Assembly (NCBI GenBank): GCA_000004985.1
Contig: GG738867.1
DNA length: 64,000 bases
Reading direction: 5' to 3' (one strand)
From: Naegleria gruberi
Taxonomy: Eukaryota
The position numbers were made by a program, and so were the translations under genes. Below the pieces are notes generated by a model. The model was given only the letters and a program-made list of their open reading frames with translations, was not told the DNA's origin and searched no databases. Of this stretch, positions 11,745 through 63,204 are shown one piece after another. How positions within the stretch are numbered: the first letter of the stretch is position 1; each line of letters opens with the position of its first letter.

Positions 11745-11817
11745 TCCCCCTTAGCTCAGTCGGTAGAGCGTCAGACTGTTAATCTGCAGGTCGGTGGTTC
11801 GAGCCCACCAGGGGGAG
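11745..11817 (+). tRNA. tRNA-Asn: tRNA-Asn (anticodon GUU).
   Basis: Cloverleaf read by eye. Acceptor TCCCCCT pairs with AGGGGGA. D-arm is GCTC/GAGC. Anticodon loop is CTGTTAA. T-arm is GGTGG-TTCGAGC-CCACC. Discriminator G is followed by a T-run (CTTTTG). Confidence 0.9.
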
Positions 11818-20825: not shown

Positions 20826-20906
20826 GCAGACTTGGCCGAGAGGTTAAGGCGCGAGACTCGAAATCTCGTGGGGAAACCTTCGTAGGTTCGAATCCTGCAG
20901 TCTGCG
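20826..20906 (+). tRNA. tRNA-Ser: tRNA-Ser (anticodon CGA), long variable arm.
   Basis: Acceptor GCAGACT pairs with AGTCTGC, discriminator G. Anticodon loop is CTCGAAA. T-arm is GTAGG-TTCGAAT-CCTGC. 3' flank is TCTGAAATTTTG (Pol III T-run). Confidence 0.9.
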
Positions 20907-21962: not shown

Positions 21963-24900
21963 TTAATGTTTCACTTTATTAACCATTTTTTTATCCTTTT
22001 TCATTTTGAGATCCTCTTTTACCTCTTTTAGCTTCTTAACAAGCTCATCAAAGTCCTTAATTCCATTGGAGAGATCTAAGTTATTGCATTTTCTTCCCTT
22101 TGGAGATTTTTGTTTTTTGCAAGGAGAACCACCACCACTACTTGTTGCATTTCTATTAGGACTACTACTAGTACATGATGCTGTATTGCTATTATTTTGA
22201 ATGGTGATAACTGCTTGTGATGATGGTACCTCATTTCCGCACATTGGGGTTGCTTGTACTGTTAGAGTTTCTTCTGTTTCTTGTCTTGGAGATGAGTCTT
22301 GCTTTGGAATGTCTTGTTCTATCTGGTCTTGAACATCTTTATACAAGGTCAGAGTTTCCATAACTGTTGGAATATTTGGATTAATATAATATGGACCAGT
22401 GGATGTACTGTCGATATTTACACCTAATTTCATGGAATGATTGTTTTCCTCGAATGAAAATTCTTGTGAATTTGAGGAATGTTCAATGTAATCATATGAG
22501 ATGGGTTGATCCAATTGAGTAATAATAATGGTTTCAGTTACATTCTTTTCTTCCTGTTTTGGAATGGTTTCCCATGAAACAAGTTCAAAATTCTCATATG
22601 ATTCTTCGATTTCTTTCGTTTCTACTGTAGGGTCAATTGTTTCATTAATAATATCAGATGAAAAGGCTTCTAATTTGCATAATGCATCATAGAGATGGTC
22701 CTGAACCAACGAAATGTCAAGTTTTAGCATTTGTTCAACATTTCCATTCTCCTCTGTCAATTGATACAAAGCATTAATTTTGTCAATTGTTTCAGTATTT
22801 GCACAAGCGGCTATTTTGTCAACCATTACCCCAGTTTCAGATCTGACTAGTTCTTTGAGAGTTTCGTTTGTTCCGTTTTCAATTTGCTTCTTTGCTATTG
22901 ATTTCACACATGTTGTGGGTTCAATTTCTTGATTCTTATCATTAATCTTTGCTACAAACTTGCAACAAAGTTCATTATTGAATTTCATCACTTCCTCTCT
23001 TGATGGAAGATTATTAAGGGAAGTTTCCAATTTTCCAAGATTAACATTCTCTTTAATAATCTGTGAAATATTATTTTGTAAATCATCCACATATTGTTTA
23101 ATCTTGGTATCCACTTCCTCTTTTGTAGCTATCATCTTGATCTCATCAGTTAATGTTGCTAATTCGGATTGGTTGGTGTCTAATTTGTGAGCTATTTCAT
23201 CTGCAACAAGTTGTTGAAGAGTGTCAAGTGTGCTCTTCATTTCTTTATGGAGATTCTTTTCACTTGAATTAACAAGCTCATTTGTTTCATTGATGGACTT
23301 GCCAAGATGTTCAAAATGTGTTGAAAGGTGATTATCTAGTAAATTCGTTGTTTCAAATTTGGTCGAAATGAAATTCTCCAGATTATCAACTTTGGTGCGG
23401 AGTGCTTCATGTTTTTCTGAAATGATTTGATTTGTTTCACTAATCATTGTTTGAAGTGAATCTTTAAGAGTTTCTACAAATGTTTGCTTAGTTTCGTTAA
23501 GCATTGTTGGAAGATTGTGTAATGGTTTAAGATATGTATTGGATGTTTCTTTTGAAAGATTTTCCAAATCTGAAACATTCTTTGTTAATTTCGAAAGAGT
23601 ATGGCTTGATTCTGTAACTATTTTTGTGGATTCAGTTATAGACTTCTGGTTCTCTTCAACTGTTTTGTTTGTTTTTTCAAGCGTTGTTTGAAGAGTTTCT
23701 AATGGTTGTTTAATCTGGTTGACCACTTCCTCTTCGGTAAGTATCATCTTTACCTCTTCAGTTAATTGATTCAATGCAGAGGTTACAGAGTTATGAGTTT
23801 CTTTGCTATTAGTCAAAATACTATTATTAAATCTTTCCAATTTGGAAACTACCAAATCAGTGGAATCCTTTCCAACACTTGAAATGAATTTCTCAAGATT
23901 ATCAACTTTAGAACAAAGTGCACTGCTGAACTCAGTTATTCTAAAGCGTTCTAAAGTGGTAGTTGCACTAATCAAACCTGTCAATTTTGAGGCGACAGAG
24001 TTCTGGTTCTCTACAATGGCTTGTTTGGATTCATTAAGAAATGTTGGAAGATTTTCCAATGGTTTTAGATATTTCTTGGTAGTTTCTAATTGTTGTTCAG
24101 TAATCTTTCCCATATCTTTTTCTATTATATCCAAACTGGAGTTTACAATTTCCTGATATAGTTTCAAAGTTTCCATTTCTGATTCTAATGTGGAAACTAT
24201 GGTCGAACTTTCTTTGGTAACAATCTGTTGGACACTTTCAAGTTTGCTCTTCATTTCTTTATGAAGCACTTGATTCGTATCATCAATCTTTGCTACAAAC
24301 TTGCAACAAAGTTCATTGTTGAATTTCATCACTTCCTCTCGTGATGGAAGATTATTAAGGGAATTTTCCAATTTTCCAAGATTAACATTCTCTTTAATAA
24401 TCTGTGAAAGATTATTCTGTAAATCATCCACATGTTTTTTAATCTTGTTGACCACTTCCTCTTCGGTAACTATCATCTTGACCTCTTCAGTTAATTGATT
24501 CAATGCAGAGGTTACAGAGTTTTGAGTTTCTTTGCTATTAGTCAAAATACTGTTATTGAATCTTTCCAATTTGGAAACTACCAAATCGGTGGACTCCTTT
24601 GCAATCTTGGTAATTGCTTCAGTTTGACTCTTACCAACCCTTGAAATGGAATTCTCAAGATTATCAACTTTTGAAGAAATTTCAATTATTCTTCTATTGG
24701 TTTCTTCAATCTTTTTCGTTTCAACAAGATTTGACTCTAAATTGGTAGAAATGGATTTCTCAAGATTATCAACTTTAGTGCTGAGTGTTTCGTGTTCTGC
24801 TGAAATGATTTGATTTGTTTCATTAACCATTGTTTGAAGTGAATCTACAAACATTTGCTTAGTTTCGTTAAGCATTGTTGGAAGATTTTCTAATGATTTA

Positions 24901-26273
24901 AGATAGGTACTAGATGTTTCTTTTGAAAGACTTTCCAAATCTGAAACATTCTTTGTTAATTTCGAAAGAGTTTGACTTGATTCTGTAACTATTTTTGTGG
25001 ATTCAGTTATAGACCTATGGTTCTCTTCCACTTTTTTGTTTGTTTTTTCAAGCAGAGTTTCTATTGGTACAAGATATTTCTTGGCTGTTTCTAATTGTTG
25101 TCCAACATCTTTTGCTATTGTATCCAAACTGGAGTTTACAGATTCATGATATAGTTTCAAAGTTTCCATTTCTGATTCTAATCTAGAAGCTATGGTTGAA
25201 CCTTCATTGGTAACAATTTGTTGGACACTTTCAAGTGTGCTCTTCATTTCTGTATGGAAATTCTTTTCACTTGAATCAACAAGCTCCTTTATGAGTTGGG
25301 TAATGTTCTTATCCAAGTCGTCATGTTTTTTTTCAAGCTGGTGACCAAGTTTAACAGCGCCAAGGAAAGAATTGGCAATTTTTTCTTCAAGATATTTCTT
25401 TGTATTTTCTAGTTCTGAACTTTGATTTGTAGTATTCTTATTGACAGTAGAAACTAAGTCTGAAACATAGTTCCCCAATGTTTGTGTTTCTTTCTTAATT
25501 TCTGTTATCCTTTCACATTGGGAGCTATGAAGAGAAGTGACCTCCCATTGGAGTTTGTACCAAAACATTGCGATTGCTATCAAGAGTACTGAGAAGGGTA
25601 CTATTTGCAAACTATTAGATGAATAGTTTGAGGAACTTGATTCAGGGTTACTAAGGAATGAATAAAAGTTAGACAATTCGGCACCAATGAGTGGTAGATT
25701 CTCTGTTTTACCAAATTGACTCTTGATCCAATAAACTATCTCGTCTTTGGAATCTTTTCTCAAAAAGTTGTCAATAACATTTGGTTTTAGTTGATAACTC
25801 TTTGAAAAGTATGAAACTGAAAAGTATTCAAGCAGCTTTCTGACAATTGCTGAAGATTGATCACTTCCAAACTTGGTTGTGATATGATACTCTTTCTCCA
25901 GCACTGACACATTAGCCTTGATCATGAAGGGATTAAAGAACAAGTCCTTCTTGGCCATCTGCTTGTGAACAGTCATGGCATCTTCCTTATTAAGTGAACA
26001 GAAATCCTTAGTGTTGATCACTTGTTGGGAGATGTGATTATCAAAGATTGATGCCGAAAGCTGACCACTCTTGAAACAATCAAAATTGAAGCAGAATTCT
26101 TGAAGGGATCTAATGTTCCTCTCATAGAGAATGTTCTTAATAATTCTGGAGCAACAGGTGCTGTGAGGATTGAAGGTACATTCTGATAGGACGTCCTCCA
26201 CTTTCTTGGCTTGCGAGATTTTGCTGCCGAAAAACAAGATTACAAGCAGTAGGAGAAGGATCTTTGCGATCAT
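21963..26273 (-). CDS. Giant (1436 aa) signal-peptide plus transmembrane coiled-coil protein with internally duplicated modules.
   Basis: N-terminal MIAKILLLLLVILFFGSKISQA (signal or anchor). A Cys-containing about 200-aa domain follows. TM segment LQIVPFSVLLIAIAMFWYKL. Then about 1000 aa of heptad-like E/K/T/S-rich coiled coil containing repeated modules (TDLVVSKLERFNNSILTNSKET..., VDDLQNN.SQIIKENVNLGKLE...CCKFVAKI.D). A basic Cys-containing tail closes the protein. Confidence 0.7.
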   Translation of the reverse strand: MIAKILLLLLVILFFGSKISQAKKVEDVLSECTFNPHSTCCSRIIKNILYERNIRSLQEFCFNFDCFKSGQLSASIFDNHISQQVINTKDFCSLNKEDAMTVHKQMAKKDLFFNPFMIKANVSVLEKEYHITTKFGSDQSSAIVRKLLEYFSVSYFSKSYQLKPNVIDNFLRKDSKDEIVYWIKSQFGKTENLPLIGAELSNFYSFLSNPESSSSNYSSNSLQIVPFSVLLIAIAMFWYKLQWEVTSLHSSQCERITEIKKETQTLGNYVSDLVSTVNKNTTNQSSELENTKKYLEEKIANSFLGAVKLGHQLEKKHDDLDKNITQLIKELVDSSEKNFHTEMKSTLESVQQIVTNEGSTIASRLESEMETLKLYHESVNSSLDTIAKDVGQQLETAKKYLVPIETLLEKTNKKVEENHRSITESTKIVTESSQTLSKLTKNVSDLESLSKETSSTYLKSLENLPTMLNETKQMFVDSLQTMVNETNQIISAEHETLSTKVDNLEKSISTNLESNLVETKKIEETNRRIIEISSKVDNLENSISRVGKSQTEAITKIAKESTDLVVSKLERFNNSILTNSKETQNSVTSALNQLTEEVKMIVTEEEVVNKIKKHVDDLQNNLSQIIKENVNLGKLENSLNNLPSREEVMKFNNELCCKFVAKIDDTNQVLHKEMKSKLESVQQIVTKESSTIVSTLESEMETLKLYQEIVNSSLDIIEKDMGKITEQQLETTKKYLKPLENLPTFLNESKQAIVENQNSVASKLTGLISATTTLERFRITEFSSALCSKVDNLEKFISSVGKDSTDLVVSKLERFNNSILTNSKETHNSVTSALNQLTEEVKMILTEEEVVNQIKQPLETLQTTLEKTNKTVEENQKSITESTKIVTESSHTLSKLTKNVSDLENLSKETSNTYLKPLHNLPTMLNETKQTFVETLKDSLQTMISETNQIISEKHEALRTKVDNLENFISTKFETTNLLDNHLSTHFEHLGKSINETNELVNSSEKNLHKEMKSTLDTLQQLVADEIAHKLDTNQSELATLTDEIKMIATKEEVDTKIKQYVDDLQNNISQIIKENVNLGKLETSLNNLPSREEVMKFNNELCCKFVAKINDKNQEIEPTTCVKSIAKKQIENGTNETLKELVRSETGVMVDKIAACANTETIDKINALYQLTEENGNVEQMLKLDISLVQDHLYDALCKLEAFSSDIINETIDPTVETKEIEESYENFELVSWETIPKQEEKNVTETIIITQLDQPISYDYIEHSSNSQEFSFEENNHSMKLGVNIDSTSTGPYYINPNIPTVMETLTLYKDVQDQIEQDIPKQDSSPRQETEETLTVQATPMCGNEVPSSQAVITIQNNSNTASCTSSSPNRNATSSGGGSPCKKQKSPKGRKCNNLDLSNGIKDFDELVKKLKEVKEDLKMKKDKKMVNKVKH
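22900..25300. repeat. Intragenic mosaic duplications at about 95% nucleotide identity. For example, 22961-23190 and 24301-24530 are near-identical, offset by 1341 bp.
   Basis: Direct comparison of the two stretches shows only scattered substitutions. Antisense ORF-track artefacts 22960..23190 and 24301..24498 encode near-identical peptides. The protein-level modules recur in a different order, so this is not a simple tandem array. Confidence 0.7.
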
Positions 26274-26553
26274 ACTGATGTTGATTTTTTTTGTTGTTGA
26301 AAATTTTGATTAAGGAGCGAAGACTTTTGTCTATTTAAGGAAAAGTAATAGGAATGCAGTTTTGTAAAGTTGTTGCCCTTTTGAGGGACTTTTGGAGGAG
26401 GGTGGAACAAAAATTGCACAATTACAAAGCAAGTTCATTAGCCAATGACAAATGCTCAAATCTCTGTTTTAAATTACAAGCTTTTTTTTTGCCCAATTTA
26501 GGTAATCGAATTCTATACAACAAGAGTAAAGCAGAATTTACTTTGAAGAATAT

Positions 26554-29088
26554 TTATTTTAATAAAGCACTCAACATTGCTTCTTGAGATCCTTTGAGGA
26601 AAAGTAATGAATTACCAATTTTGTAATCAGACTTTTCTTGCAATTTGTGTTCTTCTAAAATGGTAAGGGTATTTTGTTTGGCATCCTTTCCAAGTTTTGA
26701 TGAAGAAACAAGTGATGAAAATCTCTCCACAAATTTTTCAAATGTAAACTTTGATGAATAGCCCTTTCTAGCCAATTTAATCATTTCCAAAATTCCATAA
26801 TTTCTAACTTGTTTTTGGACAAGTTTGTCATTGAAAGCAAGAGAGCTACCAGCACTGCTGTTACGAATGCAAATGACTGGATAGGTATACTTGGTGGAGG
26901 AAATGTGTTTCAATAGGAGTTCAACATTTTTCACATAGATGTCGGAGGCAAACTCTACAGAATTGGAACCTTGCAATAATTCAGAGTAAACTGTTTGAAC
27001 AATGGTATTCTTTGAGTTTTTGGCTAAGAATTCTTTGGATTGTTGAGGAATGGAGCTGATTGGATACACTGCCTGTTGGAACCAATCAATAACCTTATAA
27101 GTGACCTTGCCATTGAAATGTCCTAAAGAGAATTCCATATCAACAAGATTTGGTTTGAAGAGTTTGCTAACTTGTTCAGATTTTCCAGAGAACATTTTTG
27201 TGAGCTCTTGAATTATTGCTCCTTCATCGGATCCCTTGTACATGCTGTTAGTTTCCTTCTTGATAATAGTGAAAACTCCATCATTGGTATCCTCAATGGT
27301 GCTCAACAGAATTGATTTGGAGTTGAATGGAGAGAAATCAATTGGTTTCCAATCAATATTCTCTGATTTGTAAATTTCTTGTTCTTGATTGAATAACTTG
27401 TCGTGAATCAATTCTTTGAATCTTTCATTTGCATAATTGACCAATAATTGTTCCAAACCATTGTATTTTACACCTCTTTGAGCATCTACACCTGTTGCAA
27501 TGCTTTCAAATCCTGTACCAATATCGATGAGTGAAATTTCTCTATTGCACTCTGGATTCTTCAACATGTCATTAATGTTCTTTACAATCCATTCGAATAA
27601 TCCATTATAAAGAGTCATGACCATCAAATCTCTATAGTGAGAAGCTTGCTTGGCATTGACAAAGGTATCAACAAAGCTGTCACCAACAGCAACCGTTGGT
27701 TTTATCATTGTGAATAATAATTCCTTATCATCAACACCCAACAATCTTGTAGCTCTATAGAATGAAGCAAAACTATTTTCACTCAACTTGGTCATTGCAC
27801 TGGTATTTGATTCATTTTCAACAAAGTCACAATTATTTAAATGTAAAAGAGCGCACAAAATCTTGGTAACATCTCCAATATTAGTTTCAGTAAAACCAAC
27901 ATTGAGGAAGAGCTTTTCTACAGCAGATGAAAAACTTGTCTTTTGTTCGAGTTCCTTATTCAACAATTGAGTGAGTTTGAATTTGGTTTTCAATTTTTCA
28001 TCGGCCAACATTTGGTAAAACACTTGGAAATTATTAATAAATCCAGATTTGTAGTCAGTCTCTTCGACTGGAATACCTTCCTTCTCAGAAATCTTTTCCA
28101 TCACCCTCACCACTGCACGACTCATTTCCAAATTGAAACATTCGAAATGAGCACCAGTGAGTGAAGAATTGGTAAATTGCAAACCAATTTTTTTAGAAAC
28201 TCTGCTACTATACTTGGATTGCTCAGTTGATGAACTTGAAAAGAGTTCAATAATTTTCAAAGCATCACTTGCCTTTGAGACAATCTTGCTATTGGTCAAT
28301 TCTCCAAAAGAATCTAATAATAATTTTACAGTAGTTGATTTTCCAGAATTACTATCACCAAGTAGAATAATTGATTGATTTTCACCTGTTGAATTCAATT
28401 TGCTAAAAACTTGATTGGGTAATTTTTGTGAAATTTTTCCATCTCGTAAATTATTAACAGAATTTGAAATGATTGATGCAAATCCACCACAATCAGTAAA
28501 CACCAAAGGATTCCTATTATCTTCTAATCTAGATTTTAAATGATGTAAAATACAAGGTTCATTAACATGAGTCAATTGTGTCAAATCTTCCAACTTGGAC
28601 ATTCCAGGAGGATTCATAAACATGACACCCATCACAGGTACCTGAGCAATTTTCTTTTTAGGATCAGAAATATTCAACAATTCAACATTGACAACATTTC
28701 CATTTCTTTCCATCAACTTTCCCATTTGAAATAATTGATTTTGAACTTGTTGTTGTGGTTTTAAATCAGAACTCAATACCCAAACATGATTATCTCCAAA
28801 TTCTTGATCACTCAAAAGTTGTGAAAATAATTTTGTACTTTTCAATGGTGAAGATGAAGAAGATGAAGCATTGGAACTTGTTTTAAAAATTGGATGAGCT
28901 TTGGAACGTGAACGGAGGTTATTTTCTGAAGAATCCGAGAGTGAATTCTTATCATTGTCGAGACCTTGTGTTTTTTGGAGCAGTTGCTTACGACGAGCTG
29001 ATGAAGAAACTGGAGAGGAATCGTTTGCTGATGACATTTTTTTTGATTGTTGATTGATGAAGGTTTTTAGTCCAATTTTGTAAGACAT
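26554..29088 (-). CDS. Myosin motor (head) domain protein with no neck or tail encoded and with degenerate ATPase motifs.
   Basis: Myosin head signatures: NPPGMSKLEDLTQLTHVNEPCILHHLKSRL, EQLLVNYANERFKELIHDKLFNQEQEIYKSENIDWKPIDF and LIDIGTGFESI (switch II-like). P-loop is GDSNSGKS (consensus GESGAGKT). Switch I is KYSSRVSKK (consensus NSSRFGK). The ORF stops right after the converter-like end, GNSLLFLKGSQEAMLSALLK. Likely start Met at 29037. Confidence 0.7.
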   Translation of the reverse strand: MSYKIGLKTFINQQSKKMSSANDSSPVSSSARRKQLLQKTQGLDNDKNSLSDSSENNLRSRSKAHPIFKTSSNASSSSSSPLKSTKLFSQLLSDQEFGDNHVWVLSSDLKPQQQVQNQLFQMGKLMERNGNVVNVELLNISDPKKKIAQVPVMGVMFMNPPGMSKLEDLTQLTHVNEPCILHHLKSRLEDNRNPLVFTDCGGFASIISNSVNNLRDGKISQKLPNQVFSKLNSTGENQSIILLGDSNSGKSTTVKLLLDSFGELTNSKIVSKASDALKIIELFSSSSTEQSKYSSRVSKKIGLQFTNSSLTGAHFECFNLEMSRAVVRVMEKISEKEGIPVEETDYKSGFINNFQVFYQMLADEKLKTKFKLTQLLNKELEQKTSFSSAVEKLFLNVGFTETNIGDVTKILCALLHLNNCDFVENESNTSAMTKLSENSFASFYRATRLLGVDDKELLFTMIKPTVAVGDSFVDTFVNAKQASHYRDLMVMTLYNGLFEWIVKNINDMLKNPECNREISLIDIGTGFESIATGVDAQRGVKYNGLEQLLVNYANERFKELIHDKLFNQEQEIYKSENIDWKPIDFSPFNSKSILLSTIEDTNDGVFTIIKKETNSMYKGSDEGAIIQELTKMFSGKSEQVSKLFKPNLVDMEFSLGHFNGKVTYKVIDWFQQAVYPISSIPQQSKEFLAKNSKNTIVQTVYSELLQGSNSVEFASDIYVKNVELLLKHISSTKYTYPVICIRNSSAGSSLAFNDKLVQKQVRNYGILEMIKLARKGYSSKFTFEKFVERFSSLVSSSKLGKDAKQNTLTILEEHKLQEKSDYKIGNSLLFLKGSQEAMLSALLK

Positions 29089-29944: not shown

Positions 29945-30025
29945 GCAGACTTGGCCGAGTGGTTAAGGCGACAGACTTGAAATCTGTTGGGGAAACCTTC
30001 GTAGGTTCGAATCCTGCAGTCTGCG
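29945..30025 (+). tRNA. tRNA-Ser: tRNA-Ser (anticodon UGA).
   Basis: Same scaffold as the Ser-CGA gene at 20826. The acceptor, T-arm, variable arm and 3' flank TCTGAAATTTTG are identical. Differences are confined to the D-loop and the anticodon stem-loop (CTTGAAA). Confidence 0.9.
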
Positions 30026-36904: not shown

Positions 36905-39900
36905 ATGAATGTCTTCAATGCCATGTTCCAGACGAGAAAGGCTCCATCGTCGGCCACTGGAACCACTCAAGCCATGCATGTATTTTACATGTTGTCAATG
37001 GAAAAGATTTTGAAGAATTTAGTGAAGAAACAAACCGATTTGAAGAATGCTTGCCAAGAAGTTATGGGTATGTTTTGTTAGGGAGACTTTTTAGTTAATC
37101 AATAATCATTATTGTCATTAATTAAATTAACCTTCATTCACAAATAACAATGGAATAATATATAGATGTTATTAAAAAGTTGGAAAAGAACGAAGCCGAC
37201 GTTCTTAGGGATATTTCTGAAAATCCAAATAGATACTTTAAACCTTTGGAATTAGCTTGTGCAACCAAAAAACCAACAATAGTAGAACCGGCATTGGATT
37301 GTCTTCATAAATTGATGGCTTATGGATATATTGATAGTAAAATACCATATGAAGGGAAAACTGATCTTTTAATTGATGTTGTTGTTGCTACAATTTCTAA
37401 TTGTTTTGATCCAACACAAGACGACAATGTTCAATTACAGATCATCAAGGCCCTTCTTACAGCAGTTACATCATGTGATATCCATGGAAGGAGCTTGAGA
37501 TTAACCGTAAAGACTTGTTTCAATATTCATCTAGTTTCAAAGAATGAAATTAATAGAAAGACAGCACAAGCAACTCTCAACCAAATGTTGAATATTATTT
37601 TCCAAAGAATGGAATCAAAACCACCAAAAGCTAAACAACAAGAAGCTAATCAAGAAAATGTTCAAGATGAGAGTGCTCTTGCACAACTTCAGGAGGAAAA
37701 ACCAACAGAGGATTATATTAATGAATTTGTTGATGGAATAATAGATGACGTTGCCCAACAAATTTTGGAACAACAACAATATGATCTTGAGAATGAGGAG
37801 GATGACGAACCTATGGATGTTATTGAAAGTGAAAATAATGGAGAGTCATCGGATAAAACAAATACACGTAAGAGATCGGTTTCAGATGCTGATCACGAAC
37901 CAAACGCTCCAATTTTTGACAACCAATACCAAAAAGATGCTTTCTTTATATTTAGAGCATTATGTAGATTAGCCATGAAGCAACTCCCTAAGAAGTATGT
38001 TTTTGTTATTACAATTTATTAATTTAAATTAACAATTTAAAAACCTAGTCCAACCCCAGACTCCTTGGAACTTAAAAGTCGTTTACTTTCTCTTGAATTA
38101 ATTCACAACGTTTTGGAAAACAGTGGACCAGTGTTTAGAACATCTGAGACTTTCATTTCGGATATCAAGCAATTTTTGTGTTTATCACTTTTGAGAAATT
38201 GTACAAGTCCAGTTCCACCAATCTTTTCTCTTTCATTGTCCATTTTTAAATCCCTTGTTAAATATTTCAAAGTTAATCTGAAAGGAGAAATTCGTTTGTT
38301 CCTGACAAACTTTTTGCGTATCTTACACAGTGAAAATAGTACATATCACCACAAGATGTTGGTAATTCAGGTTTTGAGTTTTATTGCTCAAGATTCACAA
38401 ACATTATTGGATATTTTCGTTAACTATGATTGTGCTTTGGACTCTTTGAATATTTACGAACAAATTGCTAGTGAATTGTCAAACGTTGTACAAAACTTAC
38501 AAGCTGAAGGAGAATGGATGACACCTACACAAGAACTTAAATTAAAGACAGCATCTTTGAATGCTTTGGTGTCTGTTTTGGAATCACTTGTAAAGTGGAT
38601 GAATGAAAAGCAAGGTGAATCATCAGAGGAACTTAATAATCAATCCGAAGAAATGACTGAAGGTGAATACTTTGAAAAGCAAAGAAACATGAAGATTGGT
38701 CTGAAAGAAGGTATCAAACTTTTCAATAGAAACCCAAAGAAAGGTATCAAGTACCTTGTTGAAATTGGAAAACTTCCAGATCCTGAAAAAGTCGACAAGA
38801 CTGAATATGCTACCTCTGTTGCTAAGCTTTTATATAATACTGAAGATTTTTCAAAGAAGTTGATGGGTGAATTTATGGGTGAACAAGTTAATAGTGATAT
38901 TCTCCATGCCTTTACTGAATTACAATCATTTGCTGGTCTTCCATTCGATAAGGCATTCAGAAATTATTTGAATACATTCAGACTTCCAGGTGAAGGCCAA
39001 CAAATTGACAGAGTTGTCCAAAAGTTTGCTGAAAAGTACTTTAAGGATAACGGAAAGTCACATGTTTTTGCCAATGCTGATGCTTGTTACGTTTTTGCTT
39101 ACTCTGTAATTATGTTGAATACCGAATTGCACAACCCTGCTTTCAACTTCCGTGAAAGAATGTCTCTTGAAGCTTTCATTGCTAACAATAAGGGTATCAA
39201 TGATGGTGGTGATATTGACCACAAGTACCAAGAGTCTATCTATGGAAGTATTAAGAATAATGAAATTAAATTGAAGGGAGATGAAATGGAACAAATTGTG
39301 CAACAATCCCAAGATAAAACTCAACTTACAGCTCAACAAAATCCAAGAAAGAAGCGTATGTTGTTCACTTTGGAAAGCGAAAAGCTCGAAAAGGAAACAA
39401 GAAACTTGTTGAAATCAAGTCAATCACAGAGTGATTCTGATGATCAATTCTTCAGTGCTAATCACATTACTCACGTAAGAAGTATGATGGAAACAACCTG
39501 GGAATTTTTCAAGGAAGGTCTCAAGGCTACTTTGGAAAAGGACAAGTTTGCTGATACTAAGGTCCATGACAATTGTCTCAGAGGTTTGGAATATGCTATT
39601 CACATTACTAGCCGTTTTGATATGCCAACTGAAAGATTGGCTTTTGTTCAAACATTGTGTCACTTTACCAAATTGACCATTTCTGAAAAGGAATATGAAG
39701 CTCAAAATGATCCAAATCATATCCACCAAAATCCAGATACTCTCAAGAACAGATATATTATGCAAGATAGACACATCAAGGCTATCAAGATACTTCTCAA
39801 GATTGCCGAATTAGAAGGTAATTATCTTAAGGACAGTTGGGCCAATATTTTGGAATGTCTTTCTCAATTAGAAAGATTGCAATCTGATGTCCCACAAAAT

Positions 39901-41955
39901 CGTAACAAATCCAAGAGTGCTGCTAGATTAACTATTGAATTGACCCCAGAACAAATCAATTCTAATACCATCTTGAATAATAATATTGACCATCTTGTTA
40001 TTGATAAGATCTTTGTCAAGTCTGGTGAATTGAGTGATGATGCTATTGAAAGCTTTGTTAAGGGCTTGTGTGGCGTTTCTAATGATGAAATTAATCCAAA
40101 AGCTAATAGAATGACATGTACTGGTAACATTAATATTAATCCAGTACCAAGAACTTTCAGTTTGCAAAAGCTTATTGAAGTTGCTCACTATAATATTAAC
40201 AGAATCAAAATTGTTTGGTCCAAGTTGTGGGTTCACATGGGTAAACATTTCATCACTGTTGGTACACATGATGATTTGACTATTGCAATGAATGCTATTG
40301 ACTCTTTGAGACAACTTTCAATGAAATTCTTGGAACAAGACGAATTGGCTAACTATCACTTCCAACGTGACTTCCTCAAGCCATTCTTCCAAATTATTCA
40401 ACAAAGCAACAAGACTGAAATTAGATTACTCACTGTTGAATGTGTTGGTCAAATGATTTTGGGTAGATATAACAATATCAAGTCTGGTTGGAAGACAATT
40501 CTCCAAATCTTTGCTCAAGCAGCTTTGTGTGGATCACCAGTCACTGACGAGGGTTTTAGATATGTCACTGCAATGATGAAGGATGGTGGTGATGTTGATT
40601 ATTTCCATCAAATTCAACAAAACGAATCCTTTGTTGATTGTATCTTGTGTTTGACTGCTTTTGCTCGTAACTTGGCTAATACCAATATTTCCAAAAGTTC
40701 TATTGCACTTTTAAAGCTCTGTGCTCTTCATATTGTTAATAATAGAGTTGATGCTATCAAGAATGTTGACATTTACACTGATGAAGAAGTTCACTTCAAG
40801 TTGTGGTTCCCTATCTTGACTGGTCTCTCGCGATTGGTTAGTGACGATAGAAGAGAAGAAGTTAGAGCTAATGCTTTGAAGACTCTCTTTGAAGAAGTTC
40901 TCATTAACAGAAAGATTGGTGACAGATTCTCTCCAAAGCTTTGGAATTTCGTTTTCACTGGAGTTCTTTTCCCAATATTTGACGAAATCAAGCAAGCCAA
41001 TATCACTGATGAAAGCTGGATCAATACTACTTGTAGAAAATCCTTGAGCTTGATGGTCACATTATTTGCTCAATACTTTACATCCATTCCACAATTATTC
41101 GACAATATTCTCACCTTGATTAGTTCTCATTGTTTCTTTAGAGTTGAAGAGGATCAAGTCAATCAAAATACTGACTCTCCTTTGGTTGTTGAAAAGAAGA
41201 TTAAGAATGAAAAGCTTGCTGAAATTGGTAACGAGTCATTCAAGATTTTTGTTCAATTATGTGGTAAATTATTCAATGACCAACAATGGGATGCTGTTTG
41301 CAGAAGTTTGGAAAGTATTCTCACCATCAACCTTAAACTTAAGTCACCAATCGATAGCAGAATCCGTTTGAAGATTATTGAAACAACTAACGATATTCTC
41401 ACTACTCAATTCGATAACATGAAACTTGTTCACATTGAAAGTATGCTTGATTCATTGTTGAATTGTCATAACACCTCATTGGAATTCAACTCCAAGCAAA
41501 AGGGTAATGCTGAAAATGATTACGAGATTGAAATTGAAATGTTCTCCTGTACTGTTTATGTTAATATCTGTTCCAAGTTGTGCTCATCACCAAAAACAAC
41601 CGAAGAACTCTCTAAACGTCAAGAAGTTGGAGAAAATAGAATTATTGAGATTACCGAAAGAACTTTCATCAGATATTTACAACATATTGGTATTTTACAA
41701 TATTCTGGTAGTAATGCTGATTTAGATATTCAACAAGATACTGTCTTGTGTGGTAATAGATTAATGTCATCATTGGTTCCAACAGTTGTTTCTCTCCTCG
41801 AAGTTTACCTTTCATTCCCTGAAGAACAATTCCTCAAATACTTACCTAAATTCTACCCTCTTTTCACTAAATTATTGCTGACGCAACACAGAGAAATCAG
41901 ATTAGTTCTCCTTGACTTGTTCACTAGATTTGGTAAACAAGTTCTTTTGAAATAA
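36905..41955 (+). CDS. SEC7: Sec7-domain Arf guanine-nucleotide exchange factor, BIG/Sec7p class. Three exons: 36905..37067, 37166..37994, 38049..41955.
   Basis: Sec7 catalytic domain ...FRLPGEGQQIDRVVQKFAEKYFKDN...ADACYVFAYSVIMLNTELHNPAF has the catalytic Glu in the PGE motif. DCB/HUS-like N-terminal helical regions and long HDS-like C-terminal regions are present. Introns are GTATGT..ATAG (98 nt) and GTATGT..CTAG (54 nt). Confidence 0.8.
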
Positions 41956-46596: not shown

Positions 46597-46677
46597 CGCG
46601 GTCTACAGGATTCGAACCTGTGCGGGTCGCCCCAATTGATTTCTAGTCAATCACCTTAACCACTCGGTCAAGACCGC
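46597..46677 (-). tRNA. tRNA-Ser: tRNA-Ser (anticodon AGA).
   Basis: Reverse complement folds as follows. Acceptor GCGGTCT pairs with AGACCGC, discriminator G. Anticodon loop CTAGAAA. Long variable arm. T-arm CAGG-TTCGAAT-CCTG. 3' T-run. Confidence 0.9.
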
Positions 46678-47881: not shown

Positions 47882-49501
47882 ATGGATGGAGGTAACCATT
47901 CTCGTAACAATAATGAGAGTATTATTCGAAACTCTCATTCGAATAACATGCTTGATGTTCAGTCCTCTTTACAAGATTCAAAAACAATACATGAATTATC
48001 ATCAGCAACAACACCACAACAACAATTATTTGGAAAAGGTTCCTCTTCTTCTACCAGTTTAGTCTTACCATTGACTGGACTAAACCTTTCCAATAACAAT
48101 ACTACTAGTAATTCTATTAATATTAATAATAATAATACCAATGGTCTGTCTTCTAATAGTAGCAGACAATATGTATCAGATACAACAAGTGTACAAACTA
48201 ATAATCGATCAGATTCGTCCAATAGGAATCGAATAGGATTAGTGGATTACACAATGTCAGATTCTAAAGATGACGATACTCATCTATTGATGCTACAACA
48301 TTCCACTAATAATAATACTAATCCTCAACAAGTTTCGTCTATCCTTTCGAATACAACATCAACAGCTTATCAGCAACAAGTCTTTCACTCTACTGCACCA
48401 ACACAACTGCATGGCAACAACACAGGACACAACAAGATTTTATCATCGAATAACGATTCTTCCATAATATTACCCAACGTTTCGTCCCAACTTTCGAATA
48501 GCAACATGTTTGTTTCTTGCATAAACAAATCAGCAAATTCTGTCCATTTTAATAACAACCAGTCAATGTCTAACATGCAATCTGATACAATGGAGGCATC
48601 AGAAGGAATTTTCATGCCAAACTCGCAAAACTCTAGGAATAGTACAACAACAGGATTGGTTTCGAATAACTCCACGATGATGCATGTAGCATTCTCAACT
48701 CAAAAAAACATGCAAAATGGTCAACCAACATGCTCCTCATCATCGTCATTGGAAAATCAACATCAACCACAACATGCATTACAACAAACGAATGTTGGTA
48801 TAAACTCGACTAATCCAAACTATCAATTCCTAATTAATCAAATGCAACAAACACCATCATCATCATCATCATCCATGAGAATGCTTCCAAATGCAACATT
48901 GAACATGCAATTGAATGCGAACATTTCATCATCTCTACAAATGGTAAACAATCAGACGACGACGACAACAAACTTTTCAAATTCTTCTTCCAACATTCAA
49001 AACATTCCAACGACATTTAATTCAATGATTGTGGAATATCAGACAATGCCACTTTCTGTCAGTAATCAAACAAATCAATTGACATCCATTGGAATGCATG
49101 ATGAAACCATGTTGAAATTGGATTTGGAAGATTTTGTGAATACGTTACATAGTGAGGAATATAGAGTCTATATGGATATGAATAATCTCGTTTCGAATAG
49201 TTACCATTCGAATAGTATTGTAGTGAATCATCCTTCACAACAACATCCTTTAACGTCATCTTCTAATTTACCTCAACAACAAATATCATCACTACATGTA
49301 AATCCACCTCCTAATTTTGTCCCTTCTTCCAATTTATTGAATAATCCCAACCTTTCGAATATTGCAAACAACAATTTGCATATTATCTCTTCTCAACAAC
49401 AGCAATTGCAACCAATCAACATTAACAACATGCAAAGAGTTGTTTCTCTAAATCTAGGTTCCTCCTCTTTAAATCCTACTTCCCATTTCCCATTCGAATA
49501 A
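47882..49501 (+). CDS. Low-complexity Asn/Ser/Thr/Gln-rich nuclear-type protein.
   Basis: 539-aa ORF dominated by N/S/T/Q tracts. One short, more complex patch: ETMLKLDLEDFVNTLHSEEYRVYMDMNN. Confidence 0.4.
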   Translation: MDGGNHSRNNNESIIRNSHSNNMLDVQSSLQDSKTIHELSSATTPQQQLFGKGSSSSTSLVLPLTGLNLSNNNTTSNSININNNNTNGLSSNSSRQYVSDTTSVQTNNRSDSSNRNRIGLVDYTMSDSKDDDTHLLMLQHSTNNNTNPQQVSSILSNTTSTAYQQQVFHSTAPTQLHGNNTGHNKILSSNNDSSIILPNVSSQLSNSNMFVSCINKSANSVHFNNNQSMSNMQSDTMEASEGIFMPNSQNSRNSTTTGLVSNNSTMMHVAFSTQKNMQNGQPTCSSSSSLENQHQPQHALQQTNVGINSTNPNYQFLINQMQQTPSSSSSSMRMLPNATLNMQLNANISSSLQMVNNQTTTTTNFSNSSSNIQNIPTTFNSMIVEYQTMPLSVSNQTNQLTSIGMHDETMLKLDLEDFVNTLHSEEYRVYMDMNNLVSNSYHSNSIVVNHPSQQHPLTSSSNLPQQQISSLHVNPPPNFVPSSNLLNNPNLSNIANNNLHIISSQQQQLQPININNMQRVVSLNLGSSSLNPTSHFPFE

Positions 49502-50012: not shown

Positions 50013-50269
50013 TTTTAAAAGGTGGTGTGTGAAATTCATTATTTGGACCATTGAATTATTGAACCAATTTGTAAAGTGGAGAAATAATGGAAAGTCAATT
50101 GCATTTATGTCAGTAAATAGAGGCAATGGTGCAACATTGCAAATCTGACTAATGATCCTTCCGGATGAAAATTTAAAGTATCTTCCAAATAATAATTCAA
50201 CAATTGTAATCAAGTAAAAAACACTGGACGAATTTGTGAATTTATATTAAGCCAATAGATAAAATGAAG

Positions 50270-50340
50270 TGCATTAGCCGGGAGTCGAACCCGGGTCACC
50301 AGCTTGGAAGGCTGGTATGATACCGTTACACTACTAATGC
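50270..50340 (-). tRNA. tRNA-Gly: tRNA-Gly (anticodon UCC).
   Basis: Reverse complement is GCATTAGTAGTGTAACGGTATCATACCAGCCTTCCAAGCTGGTGACCCGGGTTCGACTCCCGGCTAATGCA. The acceptor stem is perfectly paired and the anticodon loop is CTTCCAA. Confidence 0.9.
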
Positions 50341-53472: not shown

Positions 53473-53553
53473 CGCAGACTGCAGGATTCGAACCTACGAA
53501 GGTTTCCCCAACAGATTTCAAGTCTGTCGCCTTAACCACTCGGCCAAGAATGA
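53473..53553 (-). tRNA. tRNA-Ser (UGA)-like copy with a degenerate 5' acceptor strand. Probable tRNA pseudogene or duplication breakpoint.
   Basis: Positions 8-81 are identical to the Ser-UGA gene at 29945, including the 3' flank TCTGAAATTTT. The first 7 nt read TCATTCT rather than GCAGACT, so only 4 of 7 acceptor pairs can form. Confidence 0.5.
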
Positions 53554-61029: not shown

Positions 61030-63204
61030 TTATTTCTCTGATTCAAGGAAGGAATTGATGATATCAGTAAACTGAGAAGGAAATTCTCGTCTCTTTGCAA
61101 GTAATTCCAATGTTTCAGGTATTATTTTCTCATGCAATAAATCTAGACTTGGTCCATTAGAAGATTTCACTGTAAAGCACAATTTGGCATTGTATCCTTT
61201 TTCATTAATACATTGTCCAAACAATTGTCGTAATTGGTAGAAATACGTATAATCACAATCCATAAAAGTCATTGAAACTCTGTCAATAATAAATATGGTT
61301 TGCAATCTCTTTTCAGTTATTTCAATAATTTTGCTTTCTTTTCTAGTACCATCGATAGTGATTGAAACTTTGATTTTCTTTCCTGGTCTTTGTAACAATT
61401 CAATAAGTGACTTATTAGACATTTCTTCATAATCTTTGATAAATATTGAGCAAGCACCGAACCAATTCTTAATGGCCTCTTGTTGTATTTCAGGATGTGA
61501 TGTAAGGATATCCATATTAATCCATCTTATAGCCTTTGGTGCATATTTTACAATCTCTAAAGCATAATCCTTATTGCTAGATATAAACTTTGACACTTTT
61601 TGGAGACTTGTAAAAGGATCTTTTTTAAGAATTGCGATAATAATGTCCATTGAGTGTATGTACTCTTTAGGAATTGTGCTAATATTGTCTCCTCCTTTGA
61701 TGGAAGCAAGAACCATTTCTTTATCAATCTCAATACTACTATCAATTTCTGAAATGCTGAAACCTCTCCTCAAACAGTCTAAAATCAGCTCTCTATCGAT
61801 TCCAATGATATCCTTATATTCCTTTTTAAAAAGATACTTGAGAATGGATGGATTGACTCTTAGAGCCTCTTTAAGGAATTCCTTATCATGTCTCAATGAC
61901 TCATCCAATATCTTGAATAATTTTCTTTCCTGACGGCAATATTTCAACAGCCCTCTATTCTTCAAGAATTCACTGTCAACTTTGAGAGAAATATTCTTGG
62001 ATATGAATTCAGTGTCTATGGTAGTACTAACTTCTATTAACTTGCAGAATAAGTCGAAACTATTGAAAAAGCGATCATCCAAACATGCACAAATATCATC
62101 ACTTTCTACATCATGGCACAGGTACGATATGTCATAATCACGGGTTGTGCACGCCTTTACAATTTCCCAAGGCACAAATCCTATTTTTCCCTCAGCTTCT
62201 CCTTGATCCCAAGGGTAATCTGTATACTTTGAATTGGAAACCTTCGCTTTTTTTAATCCAATAATGTCAATGAGATTGCATGCTACTAAATATTCATCAT
62301 CAAATCCCAAATATCCCACCATTTGTTGTAATTGCAACACTAAAATTCCCTTATCACCTGGAACAAGGGAAACCCAATAATCACTTCTATAATTACAATT
62401 TTCAAAACTTGGATATGATAAACCTCCATAAAAAGAGCATAACAATTCCTTCTCCTTCCTTTGGAAACGGATAATATTTCCATTATTAGAAACTAGGAGA
62501 AATCTATTTGAGGATGTTGTGATTTTACACAGCTTCATATTGTCCATCTCAATAAACTCTACACAATTTGATATCTTTTCTCTGGTAATTTGAATTTCCT
62601 TTACCTCCTCATCTTGTTCATCTTTATCATCTTGGTCATTTTCTTCATCCTCTCCTTCATCTTCTTGATCATCTTCTTCATCTTCCTCTTCCTCTTCATC
62701 TTCTTCTTCTTCATCGTCATGTTCCTCTTCGTTTTGCTCTGTTTCATCATCTCCATCATTTTCATCTTTCCCTTGCTCATCTGTGACCATCATTGCATTC
62801 ACTTCCTCATCCATTTTCAATACCTTCAACAATCTTAACCAATATGCCAATGAATGATATTCATTCTCTGGATTACACTCTACAGACCAAGTCCATGTCA
62901 ATTTTCCTGAACAAATCTTGTTATTCCATAGAGTATCAACCCACTCCTTCAGCAAAAGTATGATCTTCTCACGGGAAAAGTACAAATCGTGCCAATCTTT
63001 ACACACCACAGCAAGTGATGGCAAATCCTTTGGTGAACAAAACTTGAATATATGACCCAATACAAATGGATCATATCGACAAACGAGAATATTTAGAGGT
63101 TTCTCCAATAATTGATTGGATTTTTGCTTTTTTGATGATGACAACGAGAGAGAGTTATCTTCCGAAGAGGTTCGCTTCATTTGGTGTTGGGAATTAGTAG
63201 ACAA
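61030..63204 (-). CDS. F-box-like protein with a long poly-acidic (D/E) tract.
   Basis: N-terminal F-box-like FVLGHIFKFCSPKDLPSLAVVCKDWHDL. About 60 aa run of D/E (DDETEQNEEEHDDEEEEDEEEEEDEEDD...). 724-aa uninterrupted ORF. Confidence 0.5.
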   Translation of the reverse strand: MSTNSQHQMKRTSSEDNSLSLSSSKKQKSNQLLEKPLNILVCRYDPFVLGHIFKFCSPKDLPSLAVVCKDWHDLYFSREKIILLLKEWVDTLWNNKICSGKLTWTWSVECNPENEYHSLAYWLRLLKVLKMDEEVNAMMVTDEQGKDENDGDDETEQNEEEHDDEEEEDEEEEEDEEDDQEDEGEDEENDQDDKDEQDEEVKEIQITREKISNCVEFIEMDNMKLCKITTSSNRFLLVSNNGNIIRFQRKEKELLCSFYGGLSYPSFENCNYRSDYWVSLVPGDKGILVLQLQQMVGYLGFDDEYLVACNLIDIIGLKKAKVSNSKYTDYPWDQGEAEGKIGFVPWEIVKACTTRDYDISYLCHDVESDDICACLDDRFFNSFDLFCKLIEVSTTIDTEFISKNISLKVDSEFLKNRGLLKYCRQERKLFKILDESLRHDKEFLKEALRVNPSILKYLFKKEYKDIIGIDRELILDCLRRGFSISEIDSSIEIDKEMVLASIKGGDNISTIPKEYIHSMDIIIAILKKDPFTSLQKVSKFISSNKDYALEIVKYAPKAIRWINMDILTSHPEIQQEAIKNWFGACSIFIKDYEEMSNKSLIELLQRPGKKIKVSITIDGTRKESKIIEITEKRLQTIFIIDRVSMTFMDCDYTYFYQLRQLFGQCINEKGYNAKLCFTVKSSNGPSLDLLHEKIIPETLELLAKRREFPSQFTDIINSFLESEK

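Follow-up and report, generated by a model that had tools for sequence, protein, structure and literature searches.

A myosin head that ends at the converter

We examined a 64,000-nucleotide stretch of contig GG738867.1 of Naegleria gruberi (GenBank assembly GCA_000004985.1), referred to here as the window, in which open reading frames (ORFs) are densely packed and the G+C content is ~33%. The subject is a gene for a myosin head that stops just after the converter, annotated simply as “myosin” (XP_002677439.1 / EFC44695.1 / D2VF08), and its relationship to the gene that follows it, which encodes a 1436-residue coiled-coil protein. An original prediction, made from the window sequence alone, had described the head as complete but lacking IQ motifs and tail, had judged its P-loop and switch I to be degenerate, and had suggested that head and coiled coil represent a split or functionally paired myosin. 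As set out below, we are confident that the motor-only myosin is a stand-alone protein conserved in its lineage, and the coiled-coil gene is in all likelihood beside it by chance.

The mechanical ORF of the motor-only myosin (26554-29088, minus strand, 844 codons) begins at an alternative upstream ATG at 29088, and the annotated start, Met18 of this ORF (29037), aligns with the MSS... start of the orthologues. The interval originally given for the ORF, 26274-29088, takes in the spacer that separates the two genes. Both genes lie on the minus strand (a correction to the earlier note), and the coiled-coil ORF does begin 280 bp after the TAA, as predicted. The motif letters originally quoted (GDSNSGKS, the SSRVSKK region and DIGTGFE) are all present in the sequence. 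Features and coordinates are collected in Table 1. When the coiled-coil protein and both lengths of the myosin, 827 and 844 aa, were looked up as exact sequences, no contig matched.

Table 1. Features of the motor-only myosin gene and its downstream neighbour, listed in the direction of transcription; positions are those of the window.
Feature	Position	Strand	Remarks
Motor-only myosin coding sequence	26554..29037	-	827 aa + stop; 100% identity to the annotated protein
N-terminal extension, residues 1-82	28792..29037	-	Ser/Thr-rich, predicted disordered (pLDDT <50); precedes the SH3-like subdomain
Linear motif RK[KQ][IL]LQKT[QE], residues 16-24	28966..28992	-	Basic; inside the disordered N-terminal extension
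LFSQL..EQEF motif, residues 70-80	28798..28830	-	Family-conserved; partly in heterolobosean class II (LFSKLVDAQ, FFQRLLEQQ)
Region in place of the purine-binding loop (FTDCGGFASIISNS)	28459..28500	-	Canonical NP[FY]K..IY gone; residues 175-202 of low model confidence
P-loop GDSNSGKS (canonical GESGAGKT)	28336..28359	-	Walker A GxxxxGK[ST] kept
Switch I YSSRVSK (canonical NSSRFGK)	28192..28212	-	Ser-Ser-Arg kept; N233, N235, F239 and G240 replaced
Switch II DIGTGFES	27502..27525	-	One residue longer than canonical DIxGFE; top-conserved segment of the family
Family-specific loop IATGVDAQRGVKY	27463..27501	-	Inserted after switch II, ahead of the relay helix
SH2/SH1 helix region VRNYGILEMIKLARKGY	26758..26808	-	Pivot Gly of LEGIRI replaced by Met; Val or Met in orthologues
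Converter end (YKIGNSLLFLK) and last 12 residues GSQEAMLSALLK	26557..26625	-	Lever helix, IQ motif and tail all absent
TAA stop codon of the myosin	26554..26556	-	Sequence read directly; AATAAA hexamer overlaps the stop
Intergenic spacer	26274..26553	-	280 bp, from myosin stop to start of coiled-coil gene
Coiled-coil gene (XP_002677438.1 / D2VF07 / NAEGRDRAFT_67461)	21963..26273	-	1436 aa; separate gene, unrelated to myosin

The description of a complete myosin head, through the converter and then a stop, is confirmed. Pfam Myosin_head (PF00063) matches residues 167-832 over essentially the full profile (positions 2-679 of 679; E = 7e-73, 246 bits), and a phmmer search of the PDB aligns it with the motor domain of Dictyostelium myosin II from the N-terminal subdomain through to where the converter ends (query 158-839 against chain 80-754, E = 4e-50). 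The AlphaFold model resembles solved myosin motors in Foldseek comparisons (TM-scores of 0.63-0.79) and includes the relay, the SH1/SH2 region and the converter. Beta strands at residues 84-134 of the model form an SH3-like N-terminal domain, and precomputed Myosin_N matches are listed for one orthologue, P0004, although one listing marks them as weak. The profile score itself is very low: 246 bits here versus 643-922 bits for 14 other myosins that we scanned.

The absence of IQ motifs and tail, also predicted, holds as well. Only 12 residues follow the last converter strand and an IQ motif requires ~23, so that there is no space for one. The argument for a missing neck rests on this residue count, since regular expressions for IQ motifs proved insensitive and also missed the IQ motifs of heterolobosean Myo2. 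All six family members introduced below have 10-16 residues after the converter motif, versus 1139-1173 in heterolobosean Myo2. The ending LL.K-stop is common to N. gruberi, a metagenomic sequence and Willaertia, and its recurrence in three lineages argues that the myosin stop is real rather than the result of read-through into an intron.

At the other end of the protein, the disordered extension carries RK[KQ][IL]LQKT[QE], the second most conserved 9-residue window of the family, with six of the nine positions invariant even when Willaertia is included. Across Naegleria and Willaertia it equals the catalytic motifs in conservation; it matches no known motif class and is a candidate partner-binding or regulatory handle. 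A second motif, LRSRSKAHPIFKT, is conserved only in the Naegleria clade.

A family so far confined to vahlkampfiid amoebae

A word-indexed search recovered orthologues from N. fowleri (917 aa, 47% identity) and N. lovaniensis (932 aa, 44%), along with a metagenomic relative (744 aa, 44%) that also occurs as an 815-aa variant. A profile search of 1.84 billion representative proteins added a Willaertia magna protein (KAL9643298.1, 772 aa, 28-31% identity) and no further close relatives: below Willaertia, scores fall to those of canonical myosins. Two metagenome scans likewise yielded no further family members. The family thus comprises six sequences from five genomes or contigs, counting the 815-aa variant, and so far it is found only in vahlkampfiid amoebae. 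The Willaertia gene (locus L005, 8001-10359) spans 2359 nt for 772 codons and its translation is not colinear with this span, which implies a short intron of ~40 nt that has no counterpart in the Naegleria genes.

All six sequences have both the motor-only architecture and the altered motifs, namely GD[SP]xSGK[ST] in the P-loop, SSRV in switch I, and DIG[TVS]GFES followed by an inserted loop; these motif changes were seen in none of 149 other myosins. None is fused to a coiled coil. As Willaertia also has a motor-only protein, the architecture predates the Naegleria-Willaertia split. In an alignment of five of the sequences, switch II is the best conserved 9-residue window (seven of nine positions invariant), and the P-loop is among the next ranks. 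Between the N. fowleri and N. lovaniensis genes, the ratio of nonsynonymous to synonymous substitution rates (dN/dS) is 0.24-0.29.

Could the deviant motifs and the very low family score instead mark a decaying pseudogene, or an artefact of assembly or sequencing? The ORFs are intact and the same motif changes recur in five independent genomes or contigs, with dN/dS well below 1. The shared changes, the substitution rates and the conservation of the motifs together exclude sequencing error and pseudogene decay, so this explanation is effectively refuted already, and they indicate that the odd pocket is under selection. It is very likely that a stand-alone, motor-only myosin has been conserved in this lineage.

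An unusual but conserved nucleotide pocket

We compared motifs by aligning the family with Dictyostelium, N. gruberi and other heterolobosean class II myosins. All three nucleotide-binding elements deviate from consensus, as originally noted, but calling the P-loop and switch I degenerate overstated the case, because the catalytic residues are kept: K185, T186 (as Ser), S236, S237, R238, D454, G457, F458 and E459 in Dictyostelium numbering. The P-loop varies within the family (GDSSSGKS, GDSASGKS, GDSGSGKT and GDPKSGKS). The original pairing of SSRVSKK with the switch I consensus NSSRFGK was off by one residue; the proper match is YSSRVSK, and with this alignment Ser-Ser-Arg is intact.

What truly sets the family apart is an additional switch II residue, together with the loss of both the purine-binding loop and the SH1 glycine. 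The insertion falls between the Asp and the Gly, with the Asp and Gly-Phe-Glu kept. Among 155 myosins collected, the insertion occurs in six of six family members and in none of the 149 others; to our knowledge, myosins, kinesins and G proteins otherwise all keep the DxxG spacing at this site. Directly after it comes the family-specific loop before the relay helix, which is 10-14 residues long in the family and part of a segment (residues 509-524) modelled at a predicted local distance difference test (pLDDT) score below 50. The purine-binding loop NP[FY]K..IY is absent or unalignable in all family members in the motif alignment. The SH1 helix motif LEGIRI, whose glycine serves as a pivot, has become LEMIKL, and the DPL sequence of the strut is also replaced in the family.

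In the original prediction of a catalytically altered motor or pseudo-motor, “pseudo-motor” goes too far, given that the catalytic residues are kept and the motifs are among the best conserved in the family. The same evidence bears on whether this is a dead pseudo-myosin that neither binds nor hydrolyses nucleotide and persists as a static actin-binding or scaffolding module. Such a head could have lost the adenine-binding loop together with N233 and N235, and it could tolerate an altered switch II spacing, a changed strut and a very low motor-domain score, all of which are seen here. Drift would also be expected in its pocket, yet the P-loop, SSR and DIGxGFES are among the best conserved segments across lineages that are only ~31% identical overall, neither the Walker A Lys/Ser nor the salt-bridge pair R238-E459 has been lost, and dN/dS is 0.24-0.29. 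We regard a dead head as distinctly unlikely.

What, then, of a working but slow actin motor that, like engineered motor domains without a lever, hydrolyses ATP and takes a small converter-only stroke, with its N-terminal extension as the anchor? No residue for phosphate binding or hydrolysis is missing, and the protein is best conserved in the motifs that hold them; the fold has its relay, SH1/SH2 and converter; and the N-terminal motif could provide the anchor. Against this, the insertion breaks the DxxG spacing and occurs in none of the 149 other myosins, a loop has been added before the relay, the SH1 pivot glycine and the purine loop have been lost, there is no lever to amplify movement, and the Pfam Myosin_head score is far below the range of the 14 other myosins. 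A slow motor is unlikely.

Class affinity and comparison with known myosins

The best matches outside the family are class II myosins, heterolobosean ones foremost: the European Nucleotide Archive (ENA) protein P0008, the Acrasis kona myosin heavy chain, N. gruberi Myo2 (D2V5C1) and Dictyostelium Myo2. P0008 is a 1946-aa protein with canonical motifs and a Myosin_tail_1 rod (376 bits). The third-best profile match, P0010, was set aside. It is a plant-like class XI sequence in which a motor segment of ~330 residues occurs two to three times in tandem, and an assembly or prediction error in the source database is the probable cause. Class I was not among the labelled clusters of the top 150 matches.

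Several signatures are common to the family and heterolobosean Myo2: LFSxL N-terminal to the SH3-like domain, YK.G....FLK.SQEA where the converter ends, and S[DE]EG (SDEG/SEEG) within the lower 50K region. Identity is low, at ~25% to the Dictyostelium myosin II motor and 25-28% to heterolobosean class II. The three studied Naegleria Myo2 motors are 47-51% identical to Dictyostelium (bioRxiv 10.1101/2025.05.16.654244), and the motor-only myosin is not one of them. Earlier surveys mention N. gruberi orphan myosins without detail, one from 2007 listing orphans with coiled-coil tails (PMC2375034; also PMC5583752), and two N. gruberi orphans have been described as class XIII-like genes under other accession numbers (PMC5778035).

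Heterolobosean class II myosins (Naegleria Myo2A-C, A. kona myosin heavy chain and P0008) are the best-scoring canonical relatives by both profile search and blastp, and they share the SH3-like N-terminal subdomain as well as the LFSxL, FLK.SQEA and S[DE]EG signatures. Unlike the family, they keep the canonical motifs (GESGAGKT, NSSRFGK and DIAGFE), a purine loop of the form NP[FY]K and the glycine pivot in LEGIRI. They also have two IQ motifs and a filament-forming rod of ~1100 residues (see also bioRxiv 10.1101/2025.05.16.654244), whereas the Naegleria family has neither neck nor rod. In terms of class II architecture, the motor-only myosin thus has the SH3-like domain and lacks both the two-IQ neck and the Myosin_tail_1 rod. 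The family is best treated as an orphan; it may have arisen when a heterolobosean class II paralogue shed its neck and rod.

Other reduced myosins offer partial parallels. Dictyostelium MyoK is a class I myosin without IQ motifs or tail; it bears a C-terminal prenylation signal, and one of its surface loops holds a large Gly/Pro/Arg-rich insert. Like the Naegleria family, it is a natural myosin cut down to essentially the motor domain. The amoebozoan class-1 variant from which the entire C-terminal tail is gone is noted in the PMC5583752 supplement. MyoK differs in its class I motor and canonical active site, whereas the Naegleria family has an SH3-like N-terminal domain and a modified active site. 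The family also has no C-terminal Cys or CAAX sequence, its members ending in ..LLK, ..YHQ, ..LRQ, ..LAK and ..LNK.

The apicomplexan class XIV myosin MyoA is similar in size, with a heavy chain of ~800-830 residues, and likewise lacks a cargo-binding tail. MyoA is a fast motor with canonical ATPase motifs and a neck that binds two light chains and so supplies both lever and anchor, a neck for which the 10-16 residues after the converter leave no equivalent in the Naegleria family. Class XVIII and other myosins with low or no ATPase activity are actin-binding heads that act as tethers or scaffolds, and provide a precedent for a non-motor myosin head. Class XVIII proteins have a coiled-coil tail, N-terminal KE/PDZ modules and different active-site changes, and are found in Holozoa; they were absent among the close matches. 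In function, the motor-only myosin would come closest to these reduced or low-activity myosins (MyoK, MyoA and class XVIII), although it lacks their defining features.

The coiled-coil neighbour

GenBank annotates two adjacent genes here, EFC44695 and EFC44694, in agreement with the original view that the ORFs look like two genes. The product of the second consists of a signal peptide, a Cys-containing N-terminal domain, a transmembrane segment and a long, internally duplicated helical or coiled-coil region. The hydrophobic, signal-like opening that had been noted is present at residues 1-22 (26208-26273), and a second hydrophobic segment, the predicted transmembrane segment, lies at residues ~219-243 (25545-25604). 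These two segments should direct its N-terminal part into the secretory pathway.

The gene contains several internal direct repeats of 116-227 nt that are 86-94% identical at the DNA level and spaced 729-1383 nt apart. Homologue searches with the full-length protein and with residues 1-358 returned zero matches, its own entry included. Large recent internal duplications and the lack of a homologue make the gene look fast-evolving and specific to N. gruberi. An initial impression that the ORF is unannotated was dropped: XP_002677438.1 exists, and its cluster is represented by a 52-aa fragment.

Nothing like the coiled-coil protein occurs at the myosin loci of N. fowleri, N. lovaniensis, Willaertia or the metagenomic contig. 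In N. lovaniensis and N. fowleri (loci L001 8607-13986 and L002 611-6029), an HlyIII-family gene lies upstream of the myosin, and the next gene downstream, which shares its strand, is small GTPase-like; the N. fowleri GTPase-like gene matches MMR_HSR1. Downstream of the Willaertia myosin is an RCC1-like gene, and downstream of the metagenomic myosin is a convergent gene. None of ten N. lovaniensis flanking genes has a tblastn match in the N. gruberi window, so the myosin locus has been rearranged between species.

These comparisons bear directly on the original proposal of gene fission or a functional motor/tail pairing. In its favour are the shared strand, the 280-bp separation and the fact that the nearest canonical relatives are class II myosins, which bear coiled-coil rods. 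Within the window, however, both spacing and orientation are ordinary: the median intergenic gap is 296 bp, and 16 of 34 neighbouring pairs are on the same strand. At E ≤ 0.01, Myosin_tail_1 does not match the coiled-coil protein, whereas it does match the rod of a true heterolobosean Myo2, and a blastp comparison with myosin rods in the 155-sequence database gave only weak, generic coiled-coil similarity (E ≥ 0.006). Its signal peptide and transmembrane segment also argue against a tail, as do its lack of any homologue and the different neighbours in every relative. Since the myosin is motor-only in Willaertia and the adjacency occurs only in N. gruberi, in-situ fission is untenable. A split or paired heavy chain is very improbable.

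A further idea is that an intron containing the TAA is spliced out, so that both ORFs would be exons of a single conventional heavy chain. The original prediction had found no suitable GT..AG pair; in fact 643 in-frame combinations exist, as arise by chance, and one of them uses a GGTAAT donor. That donor, at 26615, is the sole one that matches GTAAGT at five or more of six positions, and its use would delete conserved residues of a converter strand; the introns would have to be at least 406 nt long. The 2007 survey mentions N. gruberi orphans with coiled-coil tails (PMC2375034); were the motor-only myosin among them, it would once have been joined to a coiled coil by manual annotation. Against a single gene stand the conserved LL.K-stop residues of three lineages, the two GenBank genes, a downstream ORF that starts with an ATG and a signal peptide of its own and is preceded, 39 nt before that ATG, by an in-frame stop, and the lack of coiled-coil coding capacity downstream of any orthologue. 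We give the one-gene model almost no credence. Adjacency of the two genes is, with high probability, incidental, and the downstream gene would then encode an N. gruberi-specific membrane protein that is next to the myosin by accident.

Other features of the window

Six tRNA genes were detected (11745-11817, 20826-20906, 29945-30025, 46597-46677, 50269-50340 and 53473-53553), the last by Rfam but missed by ARAGORN. Three of the six are tRNA-Ser genes with different anticodons, and a tRNA-Ser(TGA) lies ~900 bp upstream of the myosin start. Two ORFs on the plus strand separated by 42 bp, 37180-38022 and 38065-41955, are probably one gene for a BIG/Sec7-type guanine nucleotide exchange factor of the ARF GTPases, interrupted by a short intron or a frame change. 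The second ORF begins at position 31 of the 161 in the HUS-domain profile, and the N-terminal part of the gene is thus expected upstream.

A 9/33-nt tandem repeat (TCATCTTCT-like) at 62609-62748, within ORF 61030-63204 (minus strand), would encode an acidic, Glu/Asp-rich stretch. Between 48001 and 50000 the GC skew is strongly negative (-0.32), well outside the range of the remaining window; this region overlaps ORF 47882-49501 (plus strand, 539 aa). A scan of the window for bacterial promoters and terminators, irrelevant to a eukaryote, found nothing.

Is the head still a motor?

The overall explanation that we modestly favour is that of two independent genes, one of which encodes an orphan, lever-less head that would bind actin under nucleotide control. 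Selection has preserved the residues that bind phosphate and carry out catalysis, so nucleotide most likely still binds to the head through the phosphate-binding elements and is probably turned over. Coupling between the pocket and any mechanical output should be weakened or retuned by the extra switch II residue, the pre-relay loop and the lost adenine-binding loop, and would be changed further by the loss of the SH1 pivot glycine and of the lever. Converter rotation needs a lever arm for amplification. With a retuned link between pocket and converter and nothing to amplify a stroke, cargo translocation or the formation of contractile filaments is unlikely. The protein would instead be a monomeric, predicted actin-binding head that tethers, clamps or regulates, not a motor that forms filaments or walks with cargo, and the conserved N-terminal motif may be the handle that joins it to partners. 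This nucleotide-gated, non-translocating mechanism, drawn from sequence comparison, is plausible, and we hold it tentatively, with doubt somewhat the stronger.

Several observations weigh against this reading. Without its purine-binding loop, the head may bind nucleotide weakly or not at all. Loop 2 and the helix-loop-helix are divergent in the motor-only myosin, but they are also divergent in functional heterolobosean Myo2. The AlphaFold model is of moderate confidence (pLDDT 66, predicted template modelling score 0.67) and was built from a 7-sequence alignment. Support for a class II origin is weak: when five family sequences were scored with class-specific hidden Markov models, class II came out ahead of its competitor, another IQ-bearing group, by only 1-14 bits (1-7 for four of the five, with 10 and 14 in the other two comparisons). 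A neighbour-joining tree of 141 motor domains recovered the family as monophyletic, on a long branch beside a class XVII sequence, with unstable placement in the superfamily. A literature search by accession number found no paper naming the motor-only myosin. The affinity to class XVII chitin-synthase myosins suggested by the tree was dropped, as the placement is unreliable and looks like long-branch attraction.

A bolder proposal, possible but doubtful, is that the family is a new, vahlkampfiid-restricted myosin class in which the motor has been repurposed as a nucleotide-controlled actin-binding switch, linked to its partners through RK[KQ][IL]LQKT[QE]. If true, nature would here have converted a cytoskeletal motor into a switch for signalling or regulation.

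Some of this was already known: the gene is annotated as “myosin”, orphan Naegleria myosins appear in surveys, and no long-standing question is opened. The motor-only myosin is an uncharacterised variant inside the myosin superfamily. The analysis does correct a tempting misreading, in that the juxtaposition of motor and coiled coil is an accident of a compact genome and there is no split heavy chain. Naegleria is one of the few organisms outside Amorphea with a class II myosin and contractile actin networks, and N. fowleri is a lethal pathogen whose motility is actin-dependent. In this setting, a conserved, lineage-specific head that lacks lever and tail, and whose catalytic residues persist despite an altered switch II spacing, is a natural experiment on rewiring the chemomechanical core of myosin, and the same family bears on what a bare myosin head can do in the cell.

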